64,000 nucleotides of DNA from Parvicellaceae bacterium (GCA_965230535.1 OZ246010.1:2202792-2266791), one strand, 5' to 3'. Positions 793 through 40,583 are shown, counted from the first letter of the stretch. Notes: generated by a model from the sequence alone, not told the origin. Program-made: numbers and translations.

Positions 793-966
793 CTAAGATT
801 TACTGTACTTATATATAGCCATGCTTGGCACTGCCACAAATGCCAGACTCGCTATGCCGAGCACTAAACCAATATTAGCTCCTGGCCAATGCATGACCTT
901 AAAAAGCACAGATAAGGCGGTTAAACTAAGGCCAATTCCTGTTGATAGATAAGCTGTTCTTTTCAT
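793..966 (-). CDS. small two-TM membrane protein (57 aa, below the ORF-track cutoff)
   Basis: Hand translation of the minus strand gives MKRTAYLSTGIGLSLTALSVLFKVMHWPGANIGLVLGIASLAFVAVPSMAIYKYSKS. Two hydrophobic helices flank a KVMHWPGA turn. The ORF lies in an otherwise empty 370-bp gap. Confidence 0.35.
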   Translation of the reverse strand: MKRTAYLSTGIGLSLTALSVLFKVMHWPGANIGLVLGIASLAFVAVPSMAIYKYSKS

Positions 967-1105
967 CTTTTTAGTTTTAATGGTTTTAGATGAAATGTGT
1001 TTTTGTGAAAATGGTACAATAACGGTTCGTATGACAAGAATAAATCATATGCGAACTTCTGAGGCCCTATATGTCGGCTCTGTTAACAAATAGAAGCAAG
1101 CTGCT

Positions 1106-2871: not shown

Positions 2872-2902
2872 CCTTTTCAACTTATTATCCAAACTTAAAC
2901 TA

Positions 2903-3679: not shown

Positions 3680-3689
3680 AGTCTTGTTT

Positions 3690-4598: not shown

Positions 4599-4667
4599 AT
4601 GCTTGTAATTTCTCTACAAGCTTACAGACACCACAATAAAGACTAAAAATAAGGTGGTGGTTGATTG

Positions 4668-4698
4668 AAACTTTGGTACGAAATAGCCAAATTTTGGT
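4668..4698 (-). promoter_or_regulatory. candidate LytTR operator: two 10-nt direct repeats with a 21-nt period
   Basis: AAACTTTGGT (4668-4677) and AAATTTTGGT (4689-4698) match at 9 of 10 positions with starts 21 nt apart. They lie 70-100 nt upstream of the ABC/kinase/LytTR operon start. LytTR regulators such as AgrA and ComE bind direct repeats at about this spacing. Confidence 0.3.
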
Positions 4699-4809
4699 GT
4701 GAGTTGTTTTCCAATAATTTAAATGATTGAATCAATAGACTTACAATCAACCATCAGTTCATCATAAAATTTAAAAATTCGGTATCTTGCCAGTCCAAAA
4801 GTTTTGATT

Positions 4810-23664: not shown

Positions 23665-24854
23665 TATCTAACAATCTTTTTTGAATAAGACCGGCCATCA
23701 TTTTCGATCAAACGAATGATGTAAACGCCTGCTTTTAATGGCTTATTTGAAGTAGCTATATCTCCATTAACAAGTCTTGTATCAACCAGTTTTCCCAGAA
23801 CATTATATAAGTACAGTTTCCCGGTAAATACTTCCGAGAAATGCAGGTCATCTTGCTTAAACCAAACGTTGAAGTTTTTTTCTTCCTGCTCCTCAATAGA
23901 ATTAAACCCTGTGATCTTGACTAAACCACCGCCATTGGTTCCAATCCAAACATCTGGACCAACAACTTCTATACAATGAATATAATCTTCGGGAAGTGGT
24001 GAATTTGATGTGTTGAAGTTGGTAAACTGTCCACCATTATATTTGAAAACACCCTTGTCGTAAGAACCAATGTACACATCATTATCTCCTTCAATAAAAG
24101 TCAGGTTATCTGTAGTTAAATTGCTGCTCGATTCCGTGTGAAAAGAGAATAAACCAGGTCCATTATAAATGGTGATTCCCTGAGAAGGTGTAGCACACCA
24201 AATTTTGTTGTTAAACGTGTCAACCGACAACACGGTATTGTCTGGAAAAGTGCTTGTATAAGAATTGTAGACCGTAACATTGGTATCTTCTATTACAGAC
24301 AAACCTCCGTTAAACGAGCCCAGATAGACAGAGCTATCGGCAAAAACAGAACCTGAAATATTGTTGGACCATAGTGGGCTGTTAAAAGCATTTCTAACTG
24401 TCCATGTGTTGCCTGGAGACTTTTGAGCAATCCCAAAGGTGGTTCCGGCCCATATGTTTCCACTGGTATCAGCAGTTATTGTTTTAACAAAGTTATCTGG
24501 TAAACCAGAGTTGAAAGTGGTATAACTTGTGAATGTTGTCCCGTCAAAATGAATCAGGCCACTGTCTGTGGTACCAATCCAAAGTTCGTTGTTTTGATCC
24601 AGTTCAAGAGCACGGATGTTGTTACTTGGAATTGCTGAATTGGATGTGTCGTAAGTTATCCATGAAGAACCATCGAACCAGTACAAACCGTAGTCTGTTC
24701 CAACCCAGATATTCTGCATATCATCTTCTTCAATAACTCTGACTGAATTATCCTGAAGCGGGGAATTAGAGTCGTCATAAATGTCCCATTGAAATTGTGC
24801 ATTTCCCATGAAAACAACGGGAAATAGTAGGAGAAACGAACAAAAAAACTTCAT
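23661..24854 (-). CDS. Reg_prop (two-component regulator propeller) repeat protein with T9SS type A C-terminal domain
   Basis: Recurring N-I/V-W-x-G-T-x-x-G-L blades. The C-terminus ...KAGVYIIRLIENDGRSYSKKIVRY is typical of a Por secretion tail. The ATG overlaps the upstream stop (TAATG). Confidence 0.8.
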   Translation of the reverse strand: MKFFCSFLLLFPVVFMGNAQFQWDIYDDSNSPLQDNSVRVIEEDDMQNIWVGTDYGLYWFDGSSWITYDTSNSAIPSNNIRALELDQNNELWIGTTDSGLIHFDGTTFTSYTTFNSGLPDNFVKTITADTSGNIWAGTTFGIAQKSPGNTWTVRNAFNSPLWSNNISGSVFADSSVYLGSFNGGLSVIEDTNVTVYNSYTSTFPDNTVLSVDTFNNKIWCATPSQGITIYNGPGLFSFHTESSSNLTTDNLTFIEGDNDVYIGSYDKGVFKYNGGQFTNFNTSNSPLPEDYIHCIEVVGPDVWIGTNGGGLVKITGFNSIEEQEEKNFNVWFKQDDLHFSEVFTGKLYLYNVLGKLVDTRLVNGDIATSNKPLKAGVYIIRLIENDGRSYSKKIVRY

Positions 24855-26905
24855 TATTGAGCAATGATAAATCGTTGGGTAATGACTTGATTCATAATGT
24901 TAAGTCTCACAAAGTAAACACCTGGAACTACAGACTCCAAATTGAGCTCTTTCTGATAAAGTCCGGTACTCGAATCTTCCATTTTAGATAGCACTACTTT
25001 TCCGTTAACATCAACAATGTCGTATAAAAAACTTGCTGTTCCCGGAATTTCCAGATTCATGGTAAAGTTTCCGTTATTTGGATTAGGAGAAATACTCAGG
25101 TTTTGAGTTAAATCCACATCATCAATACCATCACAGTTTTCAACCTGAATTGTATGTGAAGTAGTTGGACCTGCACAAGAACTTAAACCAACTTCCAGAA
25201 CCCAATCATAGAAGTAGTAATAGAACCCTCCTCCAGCTGTAGAGCCTGTTATAGACATGGTATCTACAATTTCGTATGGATAAGAAATGCCAGCACTACT
25301 TCTGTATAGATTTGCATTTGTAGGAACTGTAATCTGGTAGTTATTTCCTACAGCTAGGTCATAGTTTAGATTAATCACTGACTCTCCATCAGGCAAATTG
25401 TAAGTACCACCAGTTACCAGATTTCCTCCCTGGTCTAAGACCTGAATGGTTCTTGGTCCTGCACCATTTGCAAATACTTTAACTGACTTTATTCTTAAAG
25501 GAATCATTACATCAAACAACATGTATTGGCTTCCTGAAAAATAGCCACCGTTTCCTCCAACAGTATCCGGAATACCATTTGTTACCGTTGCGCCTGCAGT
25601 TGATAACAATGGTTCGGCCATATAAGTAGCGGTTGAATTTAGTGAAGGTGTTGTAAAAGGAGAACCTGTACCCACCAAAAAACCATTCTGATCGTACCAA
25701 TTCACATCTGTGGTTCCGGCACTTAATTGAACAGACTGTCCTTCACAAACCAGGGTATCACCAGTAACGGTTGTTGCGCTAGGTGCTGGCAATACACTAA
25801 CAGTAATAGGTTGACTGGTTGCGGTTCCACAATGGTTGGTCAAGTTCACATCAAAAGTTCCACTTTGTGTCACAACAATAGATTGTGTTGTGTCTCCATT
25901 GCTCCATTGATAATCCGTTCCGGCGGGAGCAGTAAGTGTAACAGAAGTACCTGCACAAAACTCCGTTCCTCCATTGGAAGTAATTTGAAAGTTAGGATTT
26001 CCAGGGGGGTCCTGAAGCGTTAATGTTATAGGAACAGCTGTATAGTTGTTGGTTTCGTCTTCTTCAATGAAGTTGTTTTTTGGATCCACTTCCGCGACTA
26101 TCCAGTAATCACCGTTACATGTCCCAGGTGGAATATTGATCCACATACCATCCAGGTTTTCACTATAAATATCTGTGTAACCGGAAGAAATACCTTGTTC
26201 AACAACAGAACAGTTGTAGTTTCCTCCTCCAAGGCCCCAGTTAGGGAAATCTCCGTTAAGCAAATCATTACCCATCAGGTAAGTAGTATTATCGTCTTTA
26301 CAATGGCCAAGGTAACTGGAACATGTTCCATAGTCCATCAGACAAAAACCAAGCTTAGCACCATCTCCAACAATGGGCCAGTTTCTTGGATCTGGTTCGT
26401 TCGGATCTTCAAGTCTTAGAGAGAAAACACCCCAATCGTCTACATGATTATGTCCATGAGAAGGGTGGTATGTCATAGCACCAGCCCATATGTCCGTGTA
26501 AGTCATGGTACTGTCTGCATTTCTGTGATAAATTCTTTGAACTATGAGCTGTCTTGGAGCAGAACCGTCTGGACAAATACCCGGATCACCCAGCACTGTA
26601 TCTCCTCCACAAACAAAGTAATCGGAACCACGAACCGTTAAAGGACCATGTCCAATATTTGCAGTAGATCCGGTTAATTTTAAACGTCCATTATCTGGCC
26701 CGTTCCCGGTTTGAGAATACTCATTAGGACCGCTCATGTGATTGACAATGGCGTACCATGAGATGGTAATATCGGGAAGAAGATCACAGTCTGAACTACC
26801 ATCTTTACAAACACAAGAAGCGCCATTGGTGATAGTACACTGAGCAAAAATGCCTTTGCCCAACAGTAAAAAACATCCCAGGAGAAAAACACGAAAAATC
26901 TTCAT
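24854..26905 (-). CDS. lysyl-oxidase-like catalytic domain protein with Ig-like repeats and T9SS C-terminal domain
   Basis: YHPSHGHNHVDDW versus the LOX Cu site WHSCHQHYHS. GAKLGFCLMD versus GHKASFCLED. QGISSGYTDIY versus QGLSPGCYDTY. GMWINIPPG...GDYWIVAEVDP...EEDETNN versus QWIDITDV..GNYILKVSVNP...ESDYTNN. The C-terminal tail is VPGVYFVRLNI...RFIIAQ. The ATG at 26903-26905 is preferred over the GTG at 26911. Confidence 0.75.
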   Translation of the reverse strand: MKIFRVFLLGCFLLLGKGIFAQCTITNGASCVCKDGSSDCDLLPDITISWYAIVNHMSGPNEYSQTGNGPDNGRLKLTGSTANIGHGPLTVRGSDYFVCGGDTVLGDPGICPDGSAPRQLIVQRIYHRNADSTMTYTDIWAGAMTYHPSHGHNHVDDWGVFSLRLEDPNEPDPRNWPIVGDGAKLGFCLMDYGTCSSYLGHCKDDNTTYLMGNDLLNGDFPNWGLGGGNYNCSVVEQGISSGYTDIYSENLDGMWINIPPGTCNGDYWIVAEVDPKNNFIEEDETNNYTAVPITLTLQDPPGNPNFQITSNGGTEFCAGTSVTLTAPAGTDYQWSNGDTTQSIVVTQSGTFDVNLTNHCGTATSQPITVSVLPAPSATTVTGDTLVCEGQSVQLSAGTTDVNWYDQNGFLVGTGSPFTTPSLNSTATYMAEPLLSTAGATVTNGIPDTVGGNGGYFSGSQYMLFDVMIPLRIKSVKVFANGAGPRTIQVLDQGGNLVTGGTYNLPDGESVINLNYDLAVGNNYQITVPTNANLYRSSAGISYPYEIVDTMSITGSTAGGGFYYYFYDWVLEVGLSSCAGPTTSHTIQVENCDGIDDVDLTQNLSISPNPNNGNFTMNLEIPGTASFLYDIVDVNGKVVLSKMEDSSTGLYQKELNLESVVPGVYFVRLNIMNQVITQRFIIAQ

Positions 26906-26968
26906 AACCACAAGTTATAGACTGAAAAGGTACTAAATTTATACGTGAAAGGTTAAGTTATTGATTCA

Positions 26969-28261
26969 ATGTACAAGGACATTTATGTAAAGGGACATCC
27001 AATTTTTGGACAGGGATTGAAATTTAAAGCTGATCCTCTGGCTTTTTTTGAAGAAATTAAAACACATAATCCCGGGATTCAAAAATTCAGATTTGGTTAC
27101 TTGCCAATGGTAAATTTGTCTCATCCGGAGTTGATCAAACATGTGCTTCAAACCAATAACAAAAACTACCATAAAGGCCGGGAATACATGCACCTAAGAC
27201 CTGTATTGGGAAATGGGTTGCTCACCAATGAAGGCGAGAGTTGGCTGACACAAAGAAGGTTGGCTCAACCTGCATTTCACAAGCAAAAAATCCAAAACTT
27301 TATTCAAGTCATGGAATCTTCTACTGATGCCATGTTTACTATTGATCAAAAAGAGCTTAGCGCAGACATTCACGATTGGATGATGAAGCTCACAATGGAT
27401 ATAGTATCAAGGACTATGTTTGGTGTTCAGGTTAAAGAAGATGAAGAAAAAGTCGAACACGCCCTGTCTGTTGCTATCGAAAGTTCCTATGGTCGGGTAA
27501 AAACACTCATTAATCCACCGCTTTGGTTGCCTACAAAAACAGTAAGACGATATAACCAGAGCATCAAAGACCTGAATGAGGTGGTCAATACAATTGTGGC
27601 GCAGAGGAGAGAGTCAAGGGGTCGTTACGACGATTTATTGGACATGCTGATGTATGCACAGGATGAAGAAACCAAAGAAACCATGTCAGACATTCAGCTG
27701 AGAGATGAAGTGATGACTATTTTTCTGGCAGGACATGAAACAACGGCAAATGCATTGACCTGGGCGCTTTATATTCTCAATAAGAACAAGCAACAGAAGC
27801 AACACTTATTAGATGAATTAGAATCTCATAACTGGGCTTACGACACCCCCTACCTCAACCTGATAATTAAGGAAGTGTTGAGGTTATTTCCTCCTGCATG
27901 GGCAGTTGGCAGAAGGGCAATAGAATCGGATGAAATAGGAGGTGTACCTGTTCCTGCAAAAAGCAACTTAACGATTTGTAGCTATCAGGTGCACAGAGAC
28001 CCTGAGTTTTGGGAAGACCCGCATATTTTTAAACCAGAGAGGTTCGAGAATGAAAAGGATTATCATAAGTTTCAATACTTCCCTTTTGGAGGCGGACCAA
28101 GGTTTTGTATTGGGAATAACTTTGCTCAAATAGAAATGCAGATCATTCTGAGTAAATTTCTGAGAAAGTTTACGTACTCATGTTCCAATGAAGTTGAAAA
28201 GGAACCATTGATAACCTTAAGACCAAAAGGAGGTTTGCCTGTGCGGCTTACTCAGCGATAA
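26969..28261 (+). CDS. cytochrome P450
   Basis: Heme-binding loop FPFGGGPRFCIGNNFA, I-helix AGHETTA and the ExxR motif (EVLRL). Confidence 0.92.
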   Translation: MYKDIYVKGHPIFGQGLKFKADPLAFFEEIKTHNPGIQKFRFGYLPMVNLSHPELIKHVLQTNNKNYHKGREYMHLRPVLGNGLLTNEGESWLTQRRLAQPAFHKQKIQNFIQVMESSTDAMFTIDQKELSADIHDWMMKLTMDIVSRTMFGVQVKEDEEKVEHALSVAIESSYGRVKTLINPPLWLPTKTVRRYNQSIKDLNEVVNTIVAQRRESRGRYDDLLDMLMYAQDEETKETMSDIQLRDEVMTIFLAGHETTANALTWALYILNKNKQQKQHLLDELESHNWAYDTPYLNLIIKEVLRLFPPAWAVGRRAIESDEIGGVPVPAKSNLTICSYQVHRDPEFWEDPHIFKPERFENEKDYHKFQYFPFGGGPRFCIGNNFAQIEMQIILSKFLRKFTYSCSNEVEKEPLITLRPKGGLPVRLTQR

Positions 28262-30164: not shown

Positions 30165-31340
30165 TTGGGCAAAAAGGATAACATAGAAGAGGTTTTTAAA
30201 GACGCATTTGAGTCTTTTGAAGCACCCGTGGATCCGTCTGTATGGGCAGGGGTTCAGTCCGGAATGTCTGGTGCAGGGTCTGGCGCTGCTGCTGCCGGAA
30301 CAAGCCTTACTGCAAAAATCGTTGGTTTTACTGTGGCTGCAGCCATCACTACAGCTGCGGTTGTTGGCATCTACCAGTACACATCTTCAGAAGAAGAGCC
30401 TGTGCAAAAAGATGACAATAAAGAATTGGTGGAAAACACCACTACTCCAAAAGAAGATATTGAGGCACCCATTGCTTTAGAAGATAAGTCAACGGACTCT
30501 ATTAAGGAACCGGCATCTAAAGAAGAGACCAATACACCGGAAGAAAAATCAGATGTTGTAAATAACGGTTCTTCAGGAAATGCAAATCCTGCCGCTTCTG
30601 CCGACACGCATTCTCCTGATAAAACAGATTCCACTCCAGACAAGTCCAATGATGCCAATACGGCGACGGATAAGTCGGATGCGACTAAAGAAAAGACTGA
30701 TAACACCAAAACATCCAGCGACAAAGAAGCTACAACAGAGTCTAAGGATGAACCAAAGCACGATCCTTTAACTGTAAGTGCACGTCTTGAAAACCAGAAG
30801 GGAACTGCTCCTCTTACGGTGAAAATGCTTGGTACCACTAATGGTTCTGACTTGATCTGGACTGTTAATGATGGAAACGGAAACAAAGTTCTTGAAGGGA
30901 ATGAACAATCATTCACTTTTGAAGAGTCTGGAAACTTCCTGGTTGTTGTTGAAGGCACAAATGAGCACGGAGAGAAGGAAAGACAAGAGTTTTTAGTTGA
31001 GGTAGAGCCAGATGTACAAATTTCCATGAACCTTGATCAGGCTGTTTTGGAAAGAGACGGAAGCGTTCTTTTAATTCCGAATAGCTTTGATAAGAATGAA
31101 TTAAAGTTTGTGGTTGAGAATGAAGATTCCATTGATTTCTTCAAGATGGTTGTGGTAGACGGGAATACACAAAAAATCGTCTTCGAAACAACAGACATTT
31201 CACAAAGAAACTGGAACGGAACCAATCAATTTGGAGAGCCTTTACCTGCCGGTCAGAGTTACTATCTAACTATTTTCGCTGGTGATAAAGATGGCAATAT
31301 GGTTGAACCAATCAGAAAGCGATTGGCCATTGTTCGCTAA
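30165..31340 (+). CDS. putative membrane anti-sigma factor with PKD-like and CHU_C-like extracytoplasmic domains
   Basis: The TTG start directly abuts the sigma-factor stop codon. The protein has a short cytoplasmic N-terminus, one TM (AKIVGFTVAAAITTAAVVGIYQY) and a T/S/D/K-rich linker. It also has a PKD-like module and a C-terminal LIPNSF...WNGTNQFGEPLPAGQSYYLTIFAGDKDGN segment resembling T9SS type B tails. The start codon is uncertain. Confidence 0.55.
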   Translation: MGKKDNIEEVFKDAFESFEAPVDPSVWAGVQSGMSGAGSGAAAAGTSLTAKIVGFTVAAAITTAAVVGIYQYTSSEEEPVQKDDNKELVENTTTPKEDIEAPIALEDKSTDSIKEPASKEETNTPEEKSDVVNNGSSGNANPAASADTHSPDKTDSTPDKSNDANTATDKSDATKEKTDNTKTSSDKEATTESKDEPKHDPLTVSARLENQKGTAPLTVKMLGTTNGSDLIWTVNDGNGNKVLEGNEQSFTFEESGNFLVVVEGTNEHGEKERQEFLVEVEPDVQISMNLDQAVLERDGSVLLIPNSFDKNELKFVVENEDSIDFFKMVVVDGNTQKIVFETTDISQRNWNGTNQFGEPLPAGQSYYLTIFAGDKDGNMVEPIRKRLAIVR

Positions 31341-34300
31341 TCTATTCTTACGCCGATTACAAGCACATCATCCACTTGTTTTTGATCTCCCTGCCACGAT
31401 TTAAACGCGTCATTCAGTCTTGTGTGCTGATCTTCCATGCTTAAGTGGTTTACTTCTAACAACAGTTGTTTGAAACGCTTTCTGGTGAACTTCTTGTTCT
31501 TTGGTCCACCAAACTGATCCGTGAAACCATCAGAGAACACATACAAACAATCTCCGTGCTCCAATTGAAACTCATGAGAGCTGAAGTTTTTGTCGTGATC
31601 GTATGAACCACCAATCGACTCTTTTGTGGGCTCAAAAATCATGAGCTCTCCGTTTCTTACAACATACAACGGGTTAAATGCACCTGCAAACTGGCACATC
31701 ATACTGTCTAAATGAACAGCACAAAGCGCGATATCCATACCATCTTTTGTACTGGCCACACCTTCTTCACTTTGGTGAAGCGCACGAATGATCATTTTAT
31801 CTAATCGCTCAAGGGCCTGGTGAGGCGCATCAATGTTACTGTTGTTTACAATCTGATGTAAGAACTCGTTTCCTATCATGCTCATAAAAGCACCAGGAAC
31901 ACCATGTCCGGTACAATCTGCAGCAGCAAACACCAAAACACCTCTAATATGAGAGAACCAGTAGAAGTCTCCGGAAACAATGTCTCTTGGTTTATACAAC
32001 ACAAACGAAGACTTAAAATAGGATTGCATAATCCCAATATCCGGAAGTACCGCTCGCTGAATTTGCTTGGCATAAACAATGCTGTCGGTTAAATCTTTAT
32101 TGGTTTGTATCAGGCGGTTTGCAATCTGTTTTCTATCGGTGATGTCCGTGTAGACCACCACAATGTTTCTTAGTATTCCATCTTGATATACTGGCGTGAG
32201 AGAAGCCGTGGTCCACATAATTTCACCGTTCTTCTTGTTGTGAAAAGAATCGTAGAAAATGGTCTCTGAGCTAATATGGAAGTTCTGAACAATCTCTTCA
32301 ATATTCTTGTTGGAACTGAGGTTTTGAATGCTATGCGCCTTTTCAATAATTTTCCCAAACTCCTCTTTGGTGTACCCCGAGTTTCTGACCATACCAAAGT
32401 TGTAGTACTGGATAACACCAAACTCATCGGTAATGATAACGGCCTCATTCATTCTTTGAGCAACCATAGAGAGCTTTTCCAGCTCCTTGTTTTTCTTTCT
32501 TAGCTCGCTTTCAAAGGTTTTTCTGTCGGTAATGTCTGTATAGACACCAATGATGTTTTGAAGCTTTCCTTTCTTATTGTAGATGGGTGTGAGAGTGCCT
32601 CCTGTCCAGCGCTTGTTGCCAGTTTTGCTGAGATGCAAACTGTCATATCTAAAGGCTTTATCAACTTCATGGAACCCAGCAATAACAGCAGGTAGTTCAT
32701 CATAAGAACTAAGATCTTTCAGGTTCTTAATCTTCCCATACTTAGATGCCTGAAACTCTTCCAGCGTTTCATAACCGGCCATTTCGTGGAACGATTTGTT
32801 GTACCACTCAATGTTGCCATACGCATCACAAATCAAAACGGCATCATAAATTTCTCTTGCCACAATAGACAGGCGTTCTAAGTCTTTATTGTTTTTCTGA
32901 AGCTCAAACGTGCGTTGTCTGATCAACTCTTCCAGACGTCTTTTGGATCTTGATAAACGACGGGTCCTCCAAAGCAACAGGAAGTATATAATGATGATGG
33001 ACAGAGGAATTATGATTGCATAAAACCAGGTTTTCGTCCAGAACGGCCCTTCGATTTCAAAGTGATATTCTTTTTCGTCACTCCAGTTGCCATAAGCGTC
33101 TCTACACCTAACCTTAAACGTATAGCTTCCAGGCGGCAAATATGGGTATGAAGCAGAGGTTTCCTTGGTTTCCGGCGACCAGTCATTATCATAGCCCTCC
33201 AGCATAAACTGATAAACTACCCCGTCAGCATTTTGGAAATCAATACCGGTAAAGTCAAAGGAAATGTGGTTATGCTCATGATCAAATACCGGGTTAACAG
33301 GCAAACCATTCTTTTCTTTATAATCCGGATATGCTGTTCTCCAGTTCACCGCACCATATTGAATCCTTAATCCCTTGAGGAGCATAAAAGGCGCCGTGGT
33401 TTTTGGAATGTCGTTTTCCTGAACATAGCGGTAGGCCCCTTTGATACTTCCGAACCACACACTGCCGTCCGACCCCACAATAAACGCCTTGTCGTTGGTT
33501 TCAACACCACCAAATCCGTCTGCACTTGAAAAGGATCTTTTGGTATTGATCATCCCGTTGGAGCTAAGAACAATTCGATCTAAACCAGATTGATGTCCCA
33601 CCCATAAAAACCCGTCTACAAACCTTACAAAATAAGGACTGTTATTACTGAGTCCGTTGGTTTCATTTAACAAAATACTGGAGCCATCTTCCCGAATCAC
33701 AGAAACCCCAAGCTGATGTAAAACAAAGTGGTTACCATGATTGTCCTGAGTAATATCTCTGAAAGACCCCGTTTCCACAGAGAAACTGTATTCGTGAGAT
33801 TTGCTGCCATCGTAGCTAATGACCTTGCTTTCTGTTAAGAACCAAACCAGGCCATCCAGGTCTTCATAGATATAATTAACAGTTGTTTCGCCCAAAATGG
33901 AAGGCAGTAAATGATAGATGCTATCCTTGGTTAAAACCTGAACTCCATCGTCTGTGGACAACCACATTTCTCCTGGATTGGCCTCATAAACAGAGTAAAC
34001 TTCTGTGTCGTCAAATTGTTTGGGATAAAGAACGGAGTCTCCATGACTTTTAATGAGGGCCACACCTTTTATGGTAGATACCCAGACATCACCAGAGTGG
34101 TCTTCAATAACAGAAGTGACATAATCGTGTGGCAATCCGTTCTCGCTTGAAAAGGATTTAATGCTGCCATCAGGAGCCATTCTGTCCAGGCCTTTTTCGG
34201 AACCGAACCAAACGTTTCCAAATCGGTCTTCTTCCAAACACATGATCTGATTGCTGGACAGCCCGATTTTTTTGTTGTAAGAGGTAAAGGCAAACCCCTG

Positions 34301-35239
34301 AAATAAGGAAATACCTGTTCCATCAGTTCCTACCCACAAGTTATTGTTGTTGTCTTTGTACAGGTCGTAAATGTAGTTGGTGTTCAGTCCGTTTTCATCG
34401 GTTATGAAATGACTTTTTCCTTTGCTGTAAATATGAATGCCGTCTTCTTCCGTGGCCACCCAAATACTGTTATTCGGACCCTCTTCAACATCAATTAAAC
34501 TCATGGTATGCAGACTGGAATCTACAAATTCCGGCCTTTTGAATATGTCGTCTTCAAGCTGCCAAAGTCCATTGTCTGAAGCACAGAAAAAACGGTTTTT
34601 CTCATCCAATAAGAAGGCATTTACCAGCTTGGCATCAAAATGAGAAATGCCTGTGACGTTTTTGGCTTTGTGGTTTTTAATTCTGGCCACACCGTAACCG
34701 TACGACCCAACCCAAATATTCCCAACGGCATCTTCTCCAATGGCGTTTACTTTACTAAAACCCAGGCCATCATTGATCCCGTAGTGGGTGAAATTCTTTC
34801 CGTTAAACATGTACAAGCCATGTTCTTCCGTTCCAATCCAAACATTATTTAGGCGGTCTTCAAATATGCACCAAACCGGTGATGTGGTAAACCCATCTTG
34901 TTCTGTGTATTGTTTAATCTTGTTGTTTTTGGCCTGGAAAAGTCCAGACTCTGAAGCAATCCACAAAGAACCATCGGAAGCACTGATAATCTTCCATACG
35001 GTGAGACTTGAGAATTTATCGCTGTGAAAGTTTTTGAAGTTGTGCCCATCAAAAGTATTGATCCCCCCACTCTGGGTTGCAATGTAAATTAACCCGTCGT
35101 TTGCATGGGCCATGCTCAACACCTGAGACTGACTTAGACCGTCTTCTGTACTATAATGCCTGAAATGATAGTTTTGCGCATGTGTGTGAAAGCCAAGGCT
35201 AATAAAAAGAGATATCAGTATGTACAGGGGCAGTTTCAC
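31337..35239 (-). CDS. hybrid sensor phosphatase: periplasmic Reg_prop propellers + Y_Y_Y + TM + 2 PAS + PP2C/SpoIIE domain
   Basis: Signal peptide with a GTG start. Many Reg_prop blades (NxIWVGTxxGL) and a Y_Y_Y motif (YQFMLEGYDNDWS...PPGSYTFKVRCRD.YGNWS). One TM (FYAIIIPLSIIIIYFLLLW) and two PAS/PAC modules ending in YTDITDRK. SpoIIE motifs SGDFYWF, AADCTGHGVPGAFMSMIG and FSDGFTDQFG. Confidence 0.85.
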   Translation of the reverse strand: MKLPLYILISLFISLGFHTHAQNYHFRHYSTEDGLSQSQVLSMAHANDGLIYIATQSGGINTFDGHNFKNFHSDKFSSLTVWKIISASDGSLWIASESGLFQAKNNKIKQYTEQDGFTTSPVWCIFEDRLNNVWIGTEEHGLYMFNGKNFTHYGINDGLGFSKVNAIGEDAVGNIWVGSYGYGVARIKNHKAKNVTGISHFDAKLVNAFLLDEKNRFFCASDNGLWQLEDDIFKRPEFVDSSLHTMSLIDVEEGPNNSIWVATEEDGIHIYSKGKSHFITDENGLNTNYIYDLYKDNNNNLWVGTDGTGISLFQGFAFTSYNKKIGLSSNQIMCLEEDRFGNVWFGSEKGLDRMAPDGSIKSFSSENGLPHDYVTSVIEDHSGDVWVSTIKGVALIKSHGDSVLYPKQFDDTEVYSVYEANPGEMWLSTDDGVQVLTKDSIYHLLPSILGETTVNYIYEDLDGLVWFLTESKVISYDGSKSHEYSFSVETGSFRDITQDNHGNHFVLHQLGVSVIREDGSSILLNETNGLSNNSPYFVRFVDGFLWVGHQSGLDRIVLSSNGMINTKRSFSSADGFGGVETNDKAFIVGSDGSVWFGSIKGAYRYVQENDIPKTTAPFMLLKGLRIQYGAVNWRTAYPDYKEKNGLPVNPVFDHEHNHISFDFTGIDFQNADGVVYQFMLEGYDNDWSPETKETSASYPYLPPGSYTFKVRCRDAYGNWSDEKEYHFEIEGPFWTKTWFYAIIIPLSIIIIYFLLLWRTRRLSRSKRRLEELIRQRTFELQKNNKDLERLSIVAREIYDAVLICDAYGNIEWYNKSFHEMAGYETLEEFQASKYGKIKNLKDLSSYDELPAVIAGFHEVDKAFRYDSLHLSKTGNKRWTGGTLTPIYNKKGKLQNIIGVYTDITDRKTFESELRKKNKELEKLSMVAQRMNEAVIITDEFGVIQYYNFGMVRNSGYTKEEFGKIIEKAHSIQNLSSNKNIEEIVQNFHISSETIFYDSFHNKKNGEIMWTTASLTPVYQDGILRNIVVVYTDITDRKQIANRLIQTNKDLTDSIVYAKQIQRAVLPDIGIMQSYFKSSFVLYKPRDIVSGDFYWFSHIRGVLVFAAADCTGHGVPGAFMSMIGNEFLHQIVNNSNIDAPHQALERLDKMIIRALHQSEEGVASTKDGMDIALCAVHLDSMMCQFAGAFNPLYVVRNGELMIFEPTKESIGGSYDHDKNFSSHEFQLEHGDCLYVFSDGFTDQFGGPKNKKFTRKRFKQLLLEVNHLSMEDQHTRLNDAFKSWQGDQKQVDDVLVIGVRID

Positions 35240-35256
35240 AACAACAATATACCAAA

Positions 35257-35844
35257 TTATCTATATAAGACTTTGGTTTCGTGCGTGGCAAGTCCGACCA
35301 TAGGTAGGTCAGAAGCATCATTTCCATAACAATAAACATCTGAATAATCACTGAGATTATACAGTTCTTTGATCCGCTTTACCTTTTCGTCTCCCTTGCA
35401 ATTCTTGCCTTCAAGCTGCCCTGTATATCCCTTATTTGTTTTTTTGAGTTTAGATGCGATTAGTGTAAAGCCTTTTTGGTCGCACCAGGGTTTTAACCAT
35501 AGCTCACAACTTGCGCTGACAATTACGATTTCTGCCTGTTCGTTCTTAAGAAAGTCCAATTCCTCGGAAGCAGCCTTATAGATCCGCTCATCAAATGACT
35601 CAGTGAGCTTTGAAACAGCTTCTGAGATGGCTTCTTCAGACACATTACTTAAAACATATCCGAGAAACTGTTCTTTGGCTTTTTGAGAAGACCTCAGTTT
35701 GAGTTTTTTCAGGATGATGTTAAAACTACTCTTAATCAAAGCGGTTCGAACGAATGAGTTTCCCTTTAGAGTTTTGGCAAACTCCAGCATGGAATCGCCA
35801 TTGTAAATGGTGCCGTCAAAATCTATGAAGGCGATCTTTTTCAC
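35257..35844 (-). CDS. HAD-superfamily (subfamily IB-like) phosphatase
   Basis: Motif I FIDFDGTIY, VIVSAS, and C-terminal YGNDASDLPM. The GTG start overlaps the upstream stop (GTGA). Confidence 0.8.
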   Translation of the reverse strand: MKKIAFIDFDGTIYNGDSMLEFAKTLKGNSFVRTALIKSSFNIILKKLKLRSSQKAKEQFLGYVLSNVSEEAISEAVSKLTESFDERIYKAASEELDFLKNEQAEIVIVSASCELWLKPWCDQKGFTLIASKLKKTNKGYTGQLEGKNCKGDEKVKRIKELYNLSDYSDVYCYGNDASDLPMVGLATHETKVLYR

Positions 35845-37937
35845 AGAGAAAGCTTTTTGAAAATAAACTCAGGAACATGCTTAATCACCCACATAATTGG
35901 TCTCCAGACAGCCTTAGTATATACCACACTCTTTTTGCGTTTGTAGGCCTTAAAACAAGCTTGTGCCACATCTTCAGGCATGGCGGTTAAAGGGCCGGGA
36001 GTTTTTAAATCGCCAATCATTTTAGTTTTAACAAAGCCCGGCTTTATGGTTGCTACATGAACCCCATGTTTGACGCAGTGATTTCTTAAGCCCGACAAAT
36101 AAGCTGTAAACCCTGCCTTGGCACTACCGTAAATGTAGTTGCTACCCCTTCCTCTGTCTCCGGCAACAGAAGAAATTCCCAGTATACTGCCTTCCTTACG
36201 TTGTTTAAAGTCTTCTGCAATGATGTTTAATATGGAAACCGCTCCGGTATAATTGGTTTGGATCGAATTGACCGTTTCACTGAGTGTTTTTCTGGCCTTG
36301 TCTTCATCCGGAAGCACACCAAAAGCACAAATAACCACGTTGGGTTTTCGCGTGAGCTTTTGGTAAAAGTCTGCATGGCTATTCATGTCGCAAGCATCAA
36401 AATAAACGATCTCTTTGTCGCCTGAAATAGATGAGCTCCATTTCTCCATAGCTTCAAGATTACGACTCGCCAGGGTGAGTGAATATCCTTTTTCGGCAAA
36501 CAGCTTAGCACAGGCCTGAGCCATGTCTGAGTTTGCACCCAGAATCAATACATTTTTCATAAACGACTTTGATTGTGTGTGTGGTTGTTCTGTATTTAAT
36601 AGGTTTAATCTTAAGGCCAGATCCGAATTGAAAACGCCCTTTGGATTGTGTTCCTGTATTACCTTTTGAAAACGTGGCAACTCAGGATAAGAGTTCTTAA
36701 AAGTCTCGGCAGACATGCGCGCATCTTTTGCCAGATAAATCCTTCCTCCCAGCTCAAGCACCATCTTATCTAGCTCATCCAAAAGGGCATGCGTTTTACT
36801 ATTGATTTTGATGTCCAAAGCCAGGTTAAGCCCTTCAAGAGGAAACGCCAGATAGTTCTCCTGTCTTTCTGCTCCAAACATTTTAAGAACCGATAAGAAG
36901 CTTGCCGTTCCTGATGAGGCAATCTTGTCAAGAATTTGTCTCATACCCTCAGAAGCCCTGTCTGTTGGCAAAACAAACTGGTACTGAACAAACCCCTTTC
37001 TTCCATAAATTTTATTCCAATGGTGAATGCCATCAAGCGGGTAGTAATAAGGGTCGTAATGCACAATGGCATCCTTTTCTTTCGACAGTTGCTTGTTGTA
37101 GTATAGCCAGTTAAAAATCTTTACGCTGAGTTTGTTTAAGACAAAAGGAGGAAAGAAAAAAGGCACAGATAAACGTCCTTGCTTATGTAGTTTTAAAGGG
37201 TCTTTTTTCTGTTTAGGGCTGAGATCTTTCAGGCTGGCATGTTCGCCCAAATAGAGCACAGATCGCCCAAGTTTTTTGCCTTTTTTTAAGCAGTCTATCC
37301 AGGCCACAGAATAAGTGTAGGAAGCCGTTTTGTTCATTTGATCTATGGCTTCTTCCAGAGACAAACATTTAATGGCTTTGAGTTTGATGTAAGCTGTTTC
37401 AACCTTTTTTAAACGAAGAAACACATCCTGAATAAAACCGGTAATTCCCATGCCGCCCATGGTGGCCCAAAACAAATCGCTGTTTTTGTCAGAAGAGCAA
37501 AAGACAGTTTCACCGTTTGCCAAAACCAAATTAAAGCCTTCTACCCATGCTGAAATGTTTCCATCAATATGGTGGTTTTTGCCATGAATGTCCGCAGCCA
37601 AAGCGCCAGCCAATGAAACAAACTTAGTACCTGGCGTTACGGGCAAGAAGAAACCTTTTGGCACACAAAACTCAAGTATTTCGGATAACAACAGGCCACT
37701 TTCACAATGCAATATCCCGGTTTTTAAGTCCAGAGAATGAATTTTTTTAAAAGCTGTTGCCTCCAGGCTTTGGGCATAGTTTGAGGCATCTCCATAACTT
37801 CTTCCGTTCCCTCGAATGTTTACTGAGTCCTGTTCATGAAGAAAAGGCGCCAACTCTGCTCGCGTGCTCACTTTTTTGTGCCACGCCTTTTTCATGGGGA
37901 ATAGTCCCCAACCAGATATGTTCTTTTTATCCGCCAT
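35841..37937 (-). CDS. fusion protein: DprE1-like FAD-dependent oxidase + DprE2-like short-chain dehydrogenase/reductase
   Basis: N-terminal FAD_binding_4/PCMH region with IRGNGRSYGDAS (compare M. tuberculosis DprE1 RGLGRSYGD). C-terminal SDR with VLILGANSDMAQACA (nucleotide-binding turn) and YGSAKAG (YxxxK). The ATG at 37935-37937 overlaps the UbiA gene stop by 11 nt. Confidence 0.8.
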   Translation of the reverse strand: MADKKNISGWGLFPMKKAWHKKVSTRAELAPFLHEQDSVNIRGNGRSYGDASNYAQSLEATAFKKIHSLDLKTGILHCESGLLLSEILEFCVPKGFFLPVTPGTKFVSLAGALAADIHGKNHHIDGNISAWVEGFNLVLANGETVFCSSDKNSDLFWATMGGMGITGFIQDVFLRLKKVETAYIKLKAIKCLSLEEAIDQMNKTASYTYSVAWIDCLKKGKKLGRSVLYLGEHASLKDLSPKQKKDPLKLHKQGRLSVPFFFPPFVLNKLSVKIFNWLYYNKQLSKEKDAIVHYDPYYYPLDGIHHWNKIYGRKGFVQYQFVLPTDRASEGMRQILDKIASSGTASFLSVLKMFGAERQENYLAFPLEGLNLALDIKINSKTHALLDELDKMVLELGGRIYLAKDARMSAETFKNSYPELPRFQKVIQEHNPKGVFNSDLALRLNLLNTEQPHTQSKSFMKNVLILGANSDMAQACAKLFAEKGYSLTLASRNLEAMEKWSSSISGDKEIVYFDACDMNSHADFYQKLTRKPNVVICAFGVLPDEDKARKTLSETVNSIQTNYTGAVSILNIIAEDFKQRKEGSILGISSVAGDRGRGSNYIYGSAKAGFTAYLSGLRNHCVKHGVHVATIKPGFVKTKMIGDLKTPGPLTAMPEDVAQACFKAYKRKKSVVYTKAVWRPIMWVIKHVPEFIFKKLSL

Positions 37938-38793
37938 AAATAATGACACCAAATGAAACGACCCACAATACAATTATGATTTGGAGCAATCGATCGTCAT
38001 ACAAAACCTGGGTAGGCTTACCGGATACGTTCTTTTTGTAAATGAGCCAGTAGTACCTCAACAAGCCAAGCGCCACAAAAATGGTGGTGATGGGTACCAT
38101 GTTTCCAATTCTGTCCTGAATGGATGATGACAATGTGTACAACAAATAGAACAGCAAGGTGAGAAATGAGCTCAGAATAATGCCCACATTAATCATAGGC
38201 ATGGAGTACAAACTGATGGATTTACGAGTCTCTTTTCCCTGTTGTTGAAAGAGGATGTAGTCGTGTCGCCTTTTTGCAAAGGCAAGGAAAAGCGCCAGAA
38301 AGAAAGTAACGATGATGATCCAAAATGACAAGGGGACATCTGCTACCATACCTCCGCTGATAATTCTGATGATAAAACCAATAGATATGATGATGACATC
38401 CAGAATTGGAAAGTTCTTGAGGCCTGCTGAATAGGCCAGATTCATTCCAAAATAACCGAGAATGATCATGGCAAATTTGATGTCGATGAGTCCGCCTAAT
38501 ACAATGGCAGAAGACAGGAATAACAAAACCAACCTGAATACTTTCTCCATATTGATTTTTCCGGAAGCAATTGGTCGGTTCTTTTTTTCGGGGTGCATTC
38601 TGTCTACCGGTGCATCAAACCAATCGTTCATGATATAAACAGCACTTGCTGCCAAAGAAAATGCAGCAAATCCACCAACGAGATTTAGAATCAGCTCTCC
38701 GGTCCACTCAACAGAAGCAAAAAATGCAGGAAAAAACATAAAGCCGTTTTTAATCCATTGCTTGGGTCGTATGAGTGTGATAAGATCCTTCAA
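37927..38793 (-). CDS. UbiA-family prenyltransferase, decaprenyl-phosphate phosphoribosyltransferase-like
   Basis: RPKQWIKN N-terminal motif, an Asp-rich NDWFDAPVDRMHPEKKNRPIASG motif and about 8 TM segments. The TTG start (38791-38793) directly follows the upstream TAG. Confidence 0.85.
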   Translation of the reverse strand: MKDLITLIRPKQWIKNGFMFFPAFFASVEWTGELILNLVGGFAAFSLAASAVYIMNDWFDAPVDRMHPEKKNRPIASGKINMEKVFRLVLLFLSSAIVLGGLIDIKFAMIILGYFGMNLAYSAGLKNFPILDVIIISIGFIIRIISGGMVADVPLSFWIIIVTFFLALFLAFAKRRHDYILFQQQGKETRKSISLYSMPMINVGIILSSFLTLLFYLLYTLSSSIQDRIGNMVPITTIFVALGLLRYYWLIYKKNVSGKPTQVLYDDRLLQIIIVLWVVSFGVIIYGG

Positions 38794-40464
38794 CTAGTCT
38801 ACTTCTATGGTGTAAAAATATGAATTGCGACTTGGGAAATAAATTACCCCGCTAATTCCACACGAAAGTAAGTATTTGCCCGGCTTATTTGGTGTGGGAA
38901 TACTAAGTTTTAATGTAGAGTCGAGTAATTCGTTACTCATGTTAATATTTGGAAAGCAAGTCAGCACAACACTTTTTTCCTGAATCCATGTGAACGCTAA
39001 ATTAGGCGTAATATTATCTCTTGGTGACCAATTGTGTTCGTGTTCCGGGTTTTTATTGACAATGGAAACGCTGATGTCCAGATTATCTGTGGACTGAACT
39101 TTATCGGGGGAACCTATGTCCATCCATATGAATTGATATGATCTGAAATCCGGGATTACTCTGAAGCAGATTTCATCTTTCTCGTATGTAAAGAACTCAT
39201 GACAATCATTCTTTTTTCCGCCCACCTCAACGACCGTTTTACCATCGAATTGAAACGACCAGTCCATTAAGTCGAATTGATTACCACGGTAAAAACTCGT
39301 GTTTAGTGAGTGTGAATAGTCGCCAGAATAGAACATGTACAAAGAAGGATTCTGGTACGAGTCGAGGAATACAACCGGCCTGCCATTTGCTTTCTCCTGA
39401 ATAGTGAGCGCCCAATTTTTGTAATAGGCGTACTTAAAATTCAGATTAACCTTATCCTTAAACTGACCAGCAATTAGCTCTATCCTGACAAATAGAATGC
39501 ACAATATGGGAAGGGCGGTAACAGCAAGAATTTTTTTGAAGTTGAGGGTTTCTATAGACTTGTATGATACAATTAATAAAGGTGCATAGGCCAGTGCGCT
39601 CCAGTTGGCTTCAACCTGATTTCTAAGAGAGAGAAGCAGCAGAAAACTGAAAAAAGCAAGAGAAAAATGGAGCATGGTTTTCTGAAAAGAATCCAGAGCA
39701 GAACGTTTCCAGCCAGACTGCCAGGACAACAATAGTAAAGGCAATAGTAAGAGGAGCTGACCACCAATAAAGTAAACAATCCATACCGGATTATAATCTA
39801 CCAGATCTCGATTAAAAAGGTGGAACCTGAAGCTTACCCAGTCGTGGTTATGTTGCCAAATTAAGTGAGGTACGAATAGGGCCAAAGCGCCCAAGGGAAT
39901 AAGATAAAACAGAAGTTGTTTTCGATACCTCAACAAAAGCAGAAACAAGATGCCCAAAAACACCAAAGCGTGGTATTTACTATACAACATACATGCGCCT
40001 ATTACACTCAGGCTAAGTGCCTGCAAGGGTTGGATTTTGTCCTTAAGTTTTGATAGTTGAAGTAAAAACAAACAGGAGAAAAATATCAGGGGTGCATCTG
40101 GAACGGCCAACATAGACCCTGCATGGATCAAAAACAAAGACCCGCATACCAGAGCAAAAATGATGGGCTTTTGTGCCTTGGTGAGCTTGTAAATGATTCC
40201 AAGATTAATGATGTGTGTGAGTATGACCAGCAGACGGACGCCCAATTCATTTTGAAACAGAGAATATCCAAGCTTGATGAAAAGCGCCACCATGGGCGGT
40301 TGTTCAAAGTAACCCCAGCTCAACTCTTTTGTGTACATCCAGTACAATGCTTCATCAGGATGCAGTTCGGTGAAATAAGCCTGAAACAGACAAATAAGCA
40401 GCCATATTCCGGCGATGAACCAAAGTTGCTTGTTTTGAAATGGGCTATTTTGTTCGGTGGGCAT
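38794..40464 (-). CDS. GT-C fold membrane glycosyltransferase (ArnT/PMT, family 39/83-like) with C-terminal soluble domain
   Basis: Polytopic N-terminal roughly 380 aa whose first loop reads HPDEALYWMYTKELSWGYFEQPPM (acidic DE motif). The C-terminal roughly 175 aa are non-membrane. Confidence 0.8.
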   Translation of the reverse strand: MPTEQNSPFQNKQLWFIAGIWLLICLFQAYFTELHPDEALYWMYTKELSWGYFEQPPMVALFIKLGYSLFQNELGVRLLVILTHIINLGIIYKLTKAQKPIIFALVCGSLFLIHAGSMLAVPDAPLIFFSCLFLLQLSKLKDKIQPLQALSLSVIGACMLYSKYHALVFLGILFLLLLRYRKQLLFYLIPLGALALFVPHLIWQHNHDWVSFRFHLFNRDLVDYNPVWIVYFIGGQLLLLLPLLLLSWQSGWKRSALDSFQKTMLHFSLAFFSFLLLLSLRNQVEANWSALAYAPLLIVSYKSIETLNFKKILAVTALPILCILFVRIELIAGQFKDKVNLNFKYAYYKNWALTIQEKANGRPVVFLDSYQNPSLYMFYSGDYSHSLNTSFYRGNQFDLMDWSFQFDGKTVVEVGGKKNDCHEFFTYEKDEICFRVIPDFRSYQFIWMDIGSPDKVQSTDNLDISVSIVNKNPEHEHNWSPRDNITPNLAFTWIQEKSVVLTCFPNINMSNELLDSTLKLSIPTPNKPGKYLLSCGISGVIYFPSRNSYFYTIEVD

Positions 40465-40469
40465 ATAAA

Positions 40470-40508
40470 AATCAAAAAGTCCCGACCTTGTTTTGGATCG
40501 GGACTTTA
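40470..40508 (-). terminator. rho-independent terminator after tRNA-Cys
   Basis: 10-bp stem AAAGTCCCGA (40476-40485) / TCGGGACTTT (40498-40507), followed on the minus strand by TTGATTTTT. Confidence 0.55.
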
Positions 40509-40512
40509 CTTG

Positions 40513-40583
40513 AGGTCTCGAGCGGATTCGAACCGCTGTAGATGGTTTTGCAGACCACTGCCTAGCCGCTCGGCCACGAGACC
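40513..40583 (-). tRNA. tRNA-Cys (anticodon GCA)
   Basis: The minus strand reads GGTCTCGTGGCCGAGCGGCTAGGCAGTGGTCTGCAAAACCATCTACAGCGGTTCGAATCCGCTCGAGACCT. It has a 7-bp acceptor stem (GGTCTCG/CGAGACC), anticodon loop CTGCAAA, T-arm AGCGG-TTCGAAT-CCGCT and discriminator U (a Cys identity element). CCA is not encoded. Confidence 0.9.

Follow-up and report, generated by a model that had tools for sequence, protein, structure and literature searches.

A Bacteroidota operon predicted to couple a lipid-linked D-arabinofuranose donor pathway, with a fused DprE1-DprE2 epimerase, to an ArnT-like transferase

Kelly, Duong, Nothof, Lowary and Whitfield described 'three-component' pentofuranose systems, which they termed widespread (PNAS 2024, PMC11127046). 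In Citrobacter youngae O1/O2, where the system comprises ORF15-ORF14-ORF12, ORF15, a HAD 'PRP' domain joined to a UbiA-type polyprenyl-phosphate 5-phosphoribosyltransferase (PPPRS), was shown experimentally to make polyprenyl-phosphate-ribofuranose (polyprenyl-P-Ribf) from phosphoribosyl pyrophosphate (PRPP). The GT-C glycosyltransferase ORF12, EpsG-like and the founding member of GT136, transfers Ribf in the periplasm, and its C-terminal beta-rich carbohydrate-binding module (CBM) binds the unmodified O-antigen (PMC11127046). Auxiliary epimerases alter the sugar: ORF13 leads to xylofuranose (Xylf), and DprE1/DprE2 homologues accompany glycans that contain arabinofuranose (Araf), as in loci of Stenotrophomonas maltophilia and Rathayibacter (PMC11127046). 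The examples given come from Proteobacteria, Rathayibacter, Bacillus and one phage, and Bacteroidota are absent from both text and supplement (PMC11127046). Here we analyze a stretch of 64,000 nucleotides from a Parvicellaceae bacterium (GCA_965230535.1, OZ246010.1:2202792-2266791; hereafter the window) in which a four-gene operon at 35257-40464 probably specifies a lipid-linked D-Araf donor pathway together with a GT-C enzyme for extracytoplasmic arabinofuranosylation. This degree of confidence covers the donor pathway and the link between it and the GT-C, and extends to no particular acceptor.

The decaprenyl-phospho-arabinose (DPA) pathway of mycobacteria and corynebacteria (Rv3806c, Rv3807c, DprE1 Rv3790, DprE2 Rv3791 and the Emb/Aft transferases) shares its reaction logic with the window, and the mycobacterial UbiA protein, DprE1 and DprE2 are the closest solved or characterized homologues of the window proteins (136, 308 and 116 bits). 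Pilin modification with D-Araf in Pseudomonas aeruginosa PA7/Pa5196 (PsPA7_6245-6251, TfpW/TfpX) also shares homologues of UbiA, DprE1 and DprE2 as well as a GT-C. There, biosynthetic and transferase genes are unlinked, the acceptor is pilin, and the GtrA-like 6247 and TfpX are involved. Azorhizobium caulinodans carries DprE1/DprE2/UbiA-like genes for a D-Ara donor (noeC/H/O/P), and its acceptor is a secreted lipochitooligosaccharide (Nod factor).

The window operon comprises four minus-strand genes whose neighbours abut or overlap, according to open reading frame (ORF) calls; the FAD-dependent oxidase and the short-chain dehydrogenase/reductase (SDR) form one chain:

38794..40464, minus strand: GT-C glycosyltransferase, ArnT-like, 556 aa, ATG start
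39469-40464, minus strand: transmembrane catalytic domain of the GT-C, residues 1-332
38797-39468, minus strand: periplasmic C-terminal part of the GT-C, residues 333-556, an alpha/beta subdomain followed by a beta-sandwich
37927..38793, minus strand: likely UbiA-superfamily polyprenyl-phosphate 5-phosphoribosyltransferase (Rv3806c/PPPRS-like), 288 aa, TTG start
35841-37973, minus strand: ORF of the FAD-SDR fusion, 698 aa from an ATG start at 37937, a length that matches homologues
36597..37937, minus strand: DprE1 domain, fusion residues 1-447, predicted FAD-dependent polyprenyl-P-ribose 2'-oxidase
35844..36560, minus strand: DprE2 domain, fusion residues 460-698, predicted SDR 2-keto reductase
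35841-35843, minus strand: stop codon of the fusion
35257..35844, minus strand: HAD-IB phosphatase, 195 aa, GTG start

The GT-C stop codon TAG (38794-38796) lies flush against the UbiA start codon TTG (38791-38793; the junction reads GAC TAG TTG AAG). UbiA and the fusion overlap by 11 nt (37927-37937; the junction reads ATGGCGGATAA), and the fusion and HAD genes share a GTGA (35841-35844; the junction reads CTGTGAAAA). Direct reading of the junctions bore out all three arrangements described in a first-pass annotation of this DNA, and the four motifs it had listed (RPKQWIKN, NDWFDAPVDR, RGNGRSYGD and DFDGT) were all found in the translations. The TTG and GTG starts are needed because the N-terminal motifs RPKQWIKN of UbiA and DFDGT of the HAD protein would otherwise be lost, and homologues have the lengths that follow from these starts (287-291 aa for UbiA, 195-203 aa for HAD). 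The linkage goes beyond chance, with the same genes linked in 12 loci of other organisms from two phyla.

The UbiA protein is likely a polyprenyl-phosphate 5-phosphoribosyltransferase, for which PRPP-dependent transfer is predicted. It scored 213, 193 and 169 bits on three NCBIfam models of decaprenyl-phosphate phosphoribosyltransferases (best NF008977, cut-off 234) and 170.5 bits on NF006088, a generically named HAD-UbiA fusion model. On the NCBIfam models for heme O synthase, chlorophyll synthase, GGGP synthase, 4-HB polyprenyltransferase, EboC and menaquinone-type enzymes it reached at most 55 bits. A sequence search of the PDB returned the Mycobacterium tuberculosis decaprenyl-phosphate phosphoribosyltransferase (DPPR synthase, DPPRS; 8j8j) as the closest solved relative (136 bits, aligned over residues 4-285), with the next UbiA at 31 bits. 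These values set the protein apart from the menaquinone, heme O and chlorophyll enzymes, with which the first-pass annotation had allowed that it might cluster. The protein has the UbiA fold, with 88 bits on Pfam UbiA and nine hydrophobic segments, and its Asp-rich motif NDxxDxxxD reads NDWFDAPVD at residues 56-64 (N56, D57, D60 and D64). The N and D residues of this motif are essential in M. tuberculosis DPPRS and in C. youngae ORF15 (PMC11127046).

The third gene encodes both halves of the predicted epimerase. Its DprE1 half scored 308 bits against Mycobacterium smegmatis DprE1 (PDB 4aut) and 434 bits on NCBIfam model NF053785, under the cut-off of 500 for a model built on actinobacterial sequences. 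In Foldseek, the AlphaFold2 (AF2) model of the fusion matched 49 DprE1 chains at TM-scores (TM) of 0.86-0.94, and the next family, alditol oxidase, reached 0.73. The FAD domain has the two-domain FAD_binding_4 fold in a specifically DprE1-like form, and these values do not bear out a grouping with unrelated vanillyl-alcohol/gulonolactone-type oxidases, the alternative that had been considered for it. The catalytic lysine is kept, with YLAKD aligned to YTAKD of 4aut (M. tuberculosis K418, M. smegmatis K425), and the corresponding K404 is invariant across 42 fusion proteins. In the same 4aut alignment, the cysteine targeted by benzothiazinones (BTZ; M. smegmatis C394) is an alanine in the DprE1 half, which retains the catalytic lysine. 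The DprE2 half passed NCBIfam NF005489 (303 bits, cut-off 267) and scored 193 bits on the DprE2 equivalog model NF053786, under its cut-off of 250. In the PDB sequence search M. tuberculosis DprE2 (21gq_C) scored 116 bits and the next SDR 66 bits. It has the features of a classical SDR (Pfam adh_short, 92 bits; motifs GANSD and YGSAK), and its Y603 and K607 are invariant across the 42 fusion proteins.

The two halves are joined by a linker of ~12 residues. The AF2 model of the whole chain, built on 42 homologues, has a predicted local distance difference test (pLDDT) value of 91 and a predicted TM-score (pTM) of 0.85, the latter suggesting a defined inter-domain arrangement. Hydrophobic segments and a signal peptide were looked for in the fusion and none was found; the cytoplasmic location shown for P. 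aeruginosa DprE1 is consistent with this. Among the matches listed, at least 119 further protein clusters, defined at 90% identity, represent full-length fusions of DprE1 and DprE2 that measure 662-742 aa and cover 94-100% of the query, with named members in metagenome-assembled genomes (MAGs) of Flavobacteriales, Cyclobacteriaceae and Chitinophagaceae/Sediminibacterium. The fusion appears to descend from neighbouring genes, since two loci that otherwise resemble the window (L016 and L065; the L numbers denote loci retrieved from other organisms) carry DprE1 and DprE2 as separate, overlapping genes. Literature searches for natural DprE1-DprE2 fusions returned nothing relevant.

The HAD protein scored 98.6 bits on Pfam HAD and 114.5 bits on TIGR01490, passing the cut-off of the latter, and its catalytic motifs are complete (DFDGT, VSAS and GNDASD). 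Its gene lies downstream of DprE1/DprE2 in 7/7 Bacteroidota module loci in which a HAD was detected. It is linked to the PPPRS gene in the window, L001, L006, L009, L010, L016 and L065, and fused to UbiA in Bdellovibrionota. The protein shares 28% identity (E 1e-24) with the stand-alone, UbiA-adjacent HAD of a faecal scaffold (L097, see below), a homology that ties it to the PRP role. Its similarity to the HAD part of the Bdellovibrionota fusion is weak (E 8e-4), and it gave no match to the NCBIfam HAD-UbiA fusion model NF006088. We infer that it would act as the polyprenyl-P-ribose-5-phosphate 5'-phosphatase, equivalent to 'PRP'. The first-pass annotation was right to call it a HAD phosphatase. 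Its parallel with the mycobacterial phosphatase fell away, as the structural family of Rv3807c has no relation to HAD phosphatases (PMC11127046), and the match is instead the Gram-negative 'PRP' domain.

The GT-C had PMT_2 as its sole Pfam match (53 bits), no NCBIfam match at E<=0.01 and no PDB sequence match at E<=1; its placement comes from predicted structure alone. The AF2 model (pLDDT 89.6, pTM 0.89) has a GT-C_A fold with an ArnT-type transmembrane and periplasmic arrangement. Its top Foldseek matches were the ArnT structures 5ezm/5f15 (E 4e-8, TM 0.57-0.59, 551 aligned columns), at a structure-based sequence identity of 11-13%. ALG9/ALG12, Pmt4 (E 8e-5, TM 0.38-0.42) and PglB/STT3 (PglB: E 2.6e-4, TM 0.32-0.38) followed. 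In the model, a beta-sandwich at residues ~420-556 is additional to the ArnT-like part. D37-E38 lies in the first periplasmic loop, following the first transmembrane helix; it is invariant in 42 homologues, as are R77, D123, Y161-S-K-Y-H165 and H200. With ArnT (GT83) the protein shares PMT_2, the acidic pair in the first periplasmic loop and a polyprenyl-monophosphate pentose donor, the last being a prediction for the window. The two differ in donor route (UDP-GlcA/ArnABCD in ArnT systems, PRPP/UbiA/DprE in the window) and in sugar, a cationic aminopyranose for ArnT and, as predicted, a neutral furanose here; the window GT-C also adds the C-terminal beta-sandwich.

Three narrower assignments of the GT-C were considered. 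The earlier description as ArnT/PMT-like holds, and an Emb/Aft-type assignment was rejected: no EmbA/B/C, AftA or AftD structure appears among the 50 Foldseek PDB matches listed, and sequence searches gave no such matches. Against ArnT proper stand the lack of ArnT matches in the NCBIfam and PDB sequence searches, the lack of arnABCD-type genes alongside, and a co-encoded donor pathway that is PRPP-based. As to GT136/DUF6044, the protein has the GT-C fold and Pfam PMT_2, the GT136 founder ORF12 is known here by its description as EpsG-like, and no similarity was found to the DUF6044 protein of L097, DUF6044 being equated with GT136 by inference.

Gene order in other genomes supports the same grouping. 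The fused-form loci examined were L001, L002, L006-8, L009 and L010-11. In every one of them, UbiA lies directly upstream of the fusion, and a HAD gene and an adjacent polytopic membrane protein are present (counted as such when it shows 8-11 hydrophobic segments and a soluble tail, or when tblastn detected it as homologous to the window GT-C). The order is UbiA-fusion-HAD in L001, L006, L009 and L010, and HAD-UbiA-fusion in L002, where the HAD match is weak. L016 and L065, found via the GT-C, have the window order GT-C-UbiA-DprE1-DprE2-HAD with an unfused epimerase and a GT-C 31-36% identical to that of the window. Bdellovibrio bacteriovorus and two other Bdellovibrionota genomes (L003-L005) encode a HAD-UbiA fusion of 470-471 aa and separate DprE1 and DprE2, and a PMT_2 GT-C adjoins the module in both Bdellovibrionota loci examined for it (L004 and L005). 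HAD is thus fused to UbiA in one phylum and DprE1 to DprE2 in another, which is Rosetta-stone evidence for one pathway. The possibility, raised at first pass, that the genes might not be syntenic in relatives is answered by the conservation of the module in the Bacteroidota loci examined. In a rough neighbour-joining tree, the UbiA-linked GT-Cs (window, L001, L014, L016 and L065) form one clade, and most of those linked to a deacylase gene (see below) form another. The survey across named genomes is thin because the single-protein scan of genome contigs gave five loci; a metagenome scan with a GT-C family profile gave 80 loci at 26-39% identity.

Several of these loci have features of their own. 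L004 encodes further polytopic membrane proteins of unassigned family nearby (389 and 508 aa). In the Flavobacteriales MAG locus L006 (9100-10134), the 344-aa HAD protein consists of a HAD domain, a hydrophobic segment and ~100 unassigned residues; the next gene encodes a 571-aa polytopic protein for which Pfam and NCBIfam gave no match and BLAST showed no similarity to the window GT-C. In B. bacteriovorus, lipid A carries mannose in place of phosphate, and we know of no report of arabinose in it. L097 is an unannotated 6.6-kb human faecal scaffold deposited as 'Bacteriophage sp.' (MT837543.1), with a complete pentofuranose-type locus at 898-5419: UbiA (39.5% identical to that of the window), the stand-alone HAD, a 118-aa SMR/EamA-like transporter, an NAD-dependent epimerase and a membrane protein of 565 aa with DUF6044, possibly a GT-C family. 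This locus may be a second phage-borne, or a gut-Bacteroidales-derived, seroconversion-like system. In the tblastn search of the phage collection, MT837543.1 alone matched, and the Caudoviricetes example of Kelly et al., BK026208.1, was not recovered.

Taken as one pathway, the products of the four translationally coupled genes suggest the following route. UbiA would transfer 5-phosphoribose from PRPP to a polyprenyl phosphate, presumably undecaprenyl-P, and the soluble HAD-IB phosphatase would take off the 5'-phosphate. The single-chain DprE1-DprE2 would oxidize C2' with FAD and re-reduce it with NAD(P)H, giving polyprenyl-P-beta-D-Araf. A flippase encoded outside the operon would then bring this donor to the periplasmic leaflet, where the ArnT-fold GT-C, via its D37-E38 loop, would transfer Araf to a periplasmic acceptor. 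The polyprenyl-P-pentofuranose donor and the transfer to an extracytoplasmic acceptor that were claimed at first pass are supported, as predicted chemistry, by the family assignments, the gene coupling and the synteny.

With the systems of Kelly et al. the window shares the start from PRPP, a UbiA-type phosphoribosyltransferase, a HAD phosphatase, auxiliary DprE1/DprE2 and a GT-C with a C-terminal beta-rich domain. It departs from them in its Bacteroidota host, in the single-chain DprE1-DprE2, in a GT-C that is PMT_2/ArnT-like and apparently not of GT136, and in a HAD that is a separate gene rather than the N-terminal domain of the UbiA protein. Those systems also carry a MATE/SMR flippase and lie in an O-antigen or capsule locus, and the window operon comes with neither. 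Relative to mycobacteria, the window has a HAD-IB instead of an Rv3807c-type phosphatase, a fused epimerase, an ArnT-fold transferase and an alanine at the BTZ-target cysteine; its lipid is presumably C55 (C50 in mycobacteria), and its cluster has no homologue of the GtrA-like Rv3789. Unlike in Pseudomonas, the operon includes the transferase gene, and its surroundings contain no gene for a pilin, TfpX or GtrA. The first-pass annotation knew of no characterized equivalent in this phylum, and our literature searches, which took in Flavobacterium, likewise found no lipid-linked pentofuranose donor or D-Araf glycoconjugate in Bacteroidota. The novelty is nevertheless smaller than it had implied, because Kelly et al. 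had already generalized the pathway type (PMC11127046). The pathway type is known; its variant in the window lies in a new phylum and has new protein architectures, and is set apart by the DprE1-DprE2 fusion, the stand-alone HAD, the ArnT-like transferase and the lack of a flippase gene or polysaccharide locus.

For the acceptor, lipopolysaccharide (LPS; lipid A or core) is our favoured guess, a tentative one; another envelope glycan is possible, and a protein is unlikely. The guess is favoured because of the ArnT fold, the deacylase context of sister GT-Cs, and natural D-Araf variants of lipid A, of which Rhodospirillum tenue provides an example. Ten members of the GT-C family directly adjoin an LpxZ-like 'Lipid_A_deac' gene (L013, L015, L037, L042, L045, L055, L066, L067, L089 and L094): 8 of the 80 metagenome loci, plus L013 (the cultured Mucilaginibacter puniceus) and L015. 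The name Lipid_A_deac (PF28590) is that of a precomputed Pfam match, with independent support only from weak matches to NCBIfam LpxZ_fam (21-33 bits). An LpxL-like acyltransferase gene lies near the GT-C in L015 and L066. The recurrent pairing of a GT-C with an LpxZ-like protein, which seems not to have been described, suggests that lipid A is remodelled. D-Araf on lipid A phosphates does occur in nature (review PMC5713287). We can sketch, as one possible reading, an operon that forms the genetic basis of D-Araf on lipid A or the inner core in environmental Bacteroidota. The ArnT-like GT-C would cap or replace phosphates using undecaprenyl-P-D-Araf derived from PRPP, as a neutral-sugar analogue of L-Ara4N addition; it would belong to a larger family that partners LpxZ-like deacylases, and regulation by the neighbouring PP2C phosphatase with its periplasmic sensor is possible.

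A serious rival keeps the same donor and has the GT-C decorate a surface polysaccharide (O-antigen, capsule or an exopolysaccharide side chain), with the beta-sandwich as a CBM; we regard this, too, as possible. Such glycans are the acceptor type of the characterized Gram-negative three-component systems, in which the beta-rich CBM of ORF12 binds O-antigen (PMC11127046), and the window GT-C has its extra beta-sandwich at ~420-556. Two Cyclobacteriaceae modules (L010/L011) lie near Wzy_C, OEP, Acyl_transf_3 and GT1 genes, whereas in the window, L001, L006, L016 and L065 the module sits amid housekeeping genes, outside polysaccharide loci. The GT-C also lacks similarity to the DUF6044 partner of a Kelly-type locus, and its beta-sandwich matches only generic Ig/MG folds (TM ~0.12). 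A protein acceptor is less likely than a polysaccharide, and we think it improbable that the GT-C uses the same donor to O-glycosylate proteins (type IX secretion system (T9SS) cargo, lipoproteins or pilins) in the manner of TfpW or PMT enzymes. Its only Pfam match is a family named for protein mannosyltransferases, Pmt4 and PglB/STT3 are among its structural matches, TfpW sets a precedent for D-Araf on protein, and T9SS cargo genes occur in the window. ArnT is, however, the better structural match by the values given above, no acceptor candidate is conserved beside the module, and the module loci showed neither a pilin nor a TfpX-like partner.

Far less probable is that the fusion yields another pentofuranose or a 2-keto sugar, or uses a non-ribosyl lipid, so that no arabinose is made. 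The scores under the equivalog cut-offs leave some room for this, and other epimerases do diversify the pentose, as with Xylf via ORF13 (PMC11127046). Both halves nonetheless resemble DprE1 and DprE2 far more closely than they do any other FAD oxidase or SDR and keep their catalytic residues, and the known Araf-glycan loci of Gram-negatives and Rathayibacter carry DprE1/DprE2 homologues (PMC11127046). The least probable account makes the GT-C functionally separate from UbiA-DprE-HAD and its adjacency incidental, the lipid-pentose being used by another transferase or being itself an end-product membrane lipid: most GT-C family members do lie away from the module, some modules have unrelated membrane-protein neighbours and L014 pairs a GT-C with UbiA lacking epimerase and HAD, but the GT-C stop abuts the UbiA start, the GT-C-UbiA-DprE1-DprE2-HAD order is kept in L016 and L065 at 31-36% GT-C identity, the UbiA-linked GT-Cs cluster in the tree, and a polytopic GT-C-like neighbour occurs in every module locus examined, Bdellovibrionota included.

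Other observations weigh against our preferred reading of the operon, some touching the pathway and some the acceptor. UbiA (213 against 234 bits), DprE1 (434 against 500) and DprE2 (193 against 250) all fall below the NCBIfam equivalog cut-offs, so that orthology is likely and not certified. The module partner is not one family, as the polytopic partners in L006, L010 and L002 have no BLAST similarity to the window GT-C, and the module is adjacent to a GT-C family member in 1 of the 80 metagenome loci (L065). A weak point is L014 (8001-10534), which encodes the closest non-trivial homologue of the window GT-C (46% identical) followed by UbiA only; DprE1/DprE2 and HAD genes were looked for and none was found within 8 kb. 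The locus may encode a ribofuranose variant or have its remaining genes elsewhere; the arrangement fits an auxiliary role for the epimerase, but offers no local candidate for the phosphatase step. A hydropathy scan found no flippase-like ORF of 80-200 aa within ~8 kb in 11 module loci; the scan is crude and covers small ORFs only, and it detected its positive control, the SMR gene of L097. Every named carrier of the fusion is an uncultured MAG, and the lipid A link consists of an association seen in paralogues plus the weak LpxZ-family match of 21-33 bits.

If our preferred reading of a D-Araf donor pathway coupled to the GT-C holds, the operon predicts a D-Araf glycoconjugate in Bacteroidota, and the fusion recurs in the at least 119 other clusters among the matches listed. 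It would also extend the pentofuranose paradigm of Kelly, Whitfield and colleagues to a new phylum and a new, ArnT-like transferase family. Because the fusion is a single chain without an export signal and requires NAD(P)H, it indirectly suggests that epimerization is cytoplasmic. The site of action of DprE1, a drug target in M. tuberculosis, is still debated, and signal-less fusions bear on that debate. Natural fusions could also stand in for the DprE1-DprE2 complex as stable model proteins. With known chemistry and uncultured carriers, the practical impact is modest.

The host belongs to the Bacteroidota, and T9SS C-terminal sorting domains are encoded in the window. Closest among the genomes is a 'Bacteroidia bacterium' MAG, fully syntenic from gltX to a sigma factor gene, with 64-97% amino acid identity over eight genes compared (85% for the fusion protein). 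The operon sits between tRNA-Cys/folB/gltX and a sensor gene, outside any polysaccharide locus, and its immediate flanks are:

40512-40583, minus strand: tRNA-Cys
40476..40507, minus strand: G+C-rich 12-bp hairpin followed by a T-run, directly after tRNA-Cys and ending 11 nt before the GT-C ATG
31337..35239, minus strand: sensor, 1300 aa, with Reg_prop propellers, Y_Y_Y, two PAS domains and a SpoIIE/PP2C phosphatase domain (Pfam)

With this hairpin as its upstream boundary, the operon has hardly any space for a promoter. Transcription might proceed by read-through, start at a promoter that overlaps the tRNA or the terminator, or give a leaderless transcript. A sigma-70 promoter scan, which does not cover Bacteroidota promoters, stayed at background level. 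A small flippase gene was sought as a free ORF of 70-220 aa with at least three hydrophobic segments; none was found near the operon, and the nearest in the 64-kb window lies 18 kb off.

Downstream, the GTG start of the sensor gene lies 17 nt past the HAD stop, and a search of this gap returned no terminator-like site. The sensor is possibly co-transcribed with the operon, and its membership in the system is uncertain. L001 has a conserved counterpart. The PP2C domain of the window sensor shares 42% identity with a HAMP-SpoIIE protein encoded ~4 kb from the L009 module, where a Reg_prop/Y_Y_Y sensor gene is divergent from UbiA, and 39% with a TPR-SpoIIE protein whose gene is convergent on UbiA in L014. 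The link between sensor and module is possibly due to chance, because other module loci have no such neighbours.

Farther out, the window encodes at 24854-26911 (minus strand) a T9SS cargo protein with lysyl-oxidase-like and Ig_7 domains. The adjoining gene, on the opposite strand at 26969-28261 (plus strand), encodes a cytochrome P450 (286 bits), an uncommon find in Bacteroidia with small genomes.

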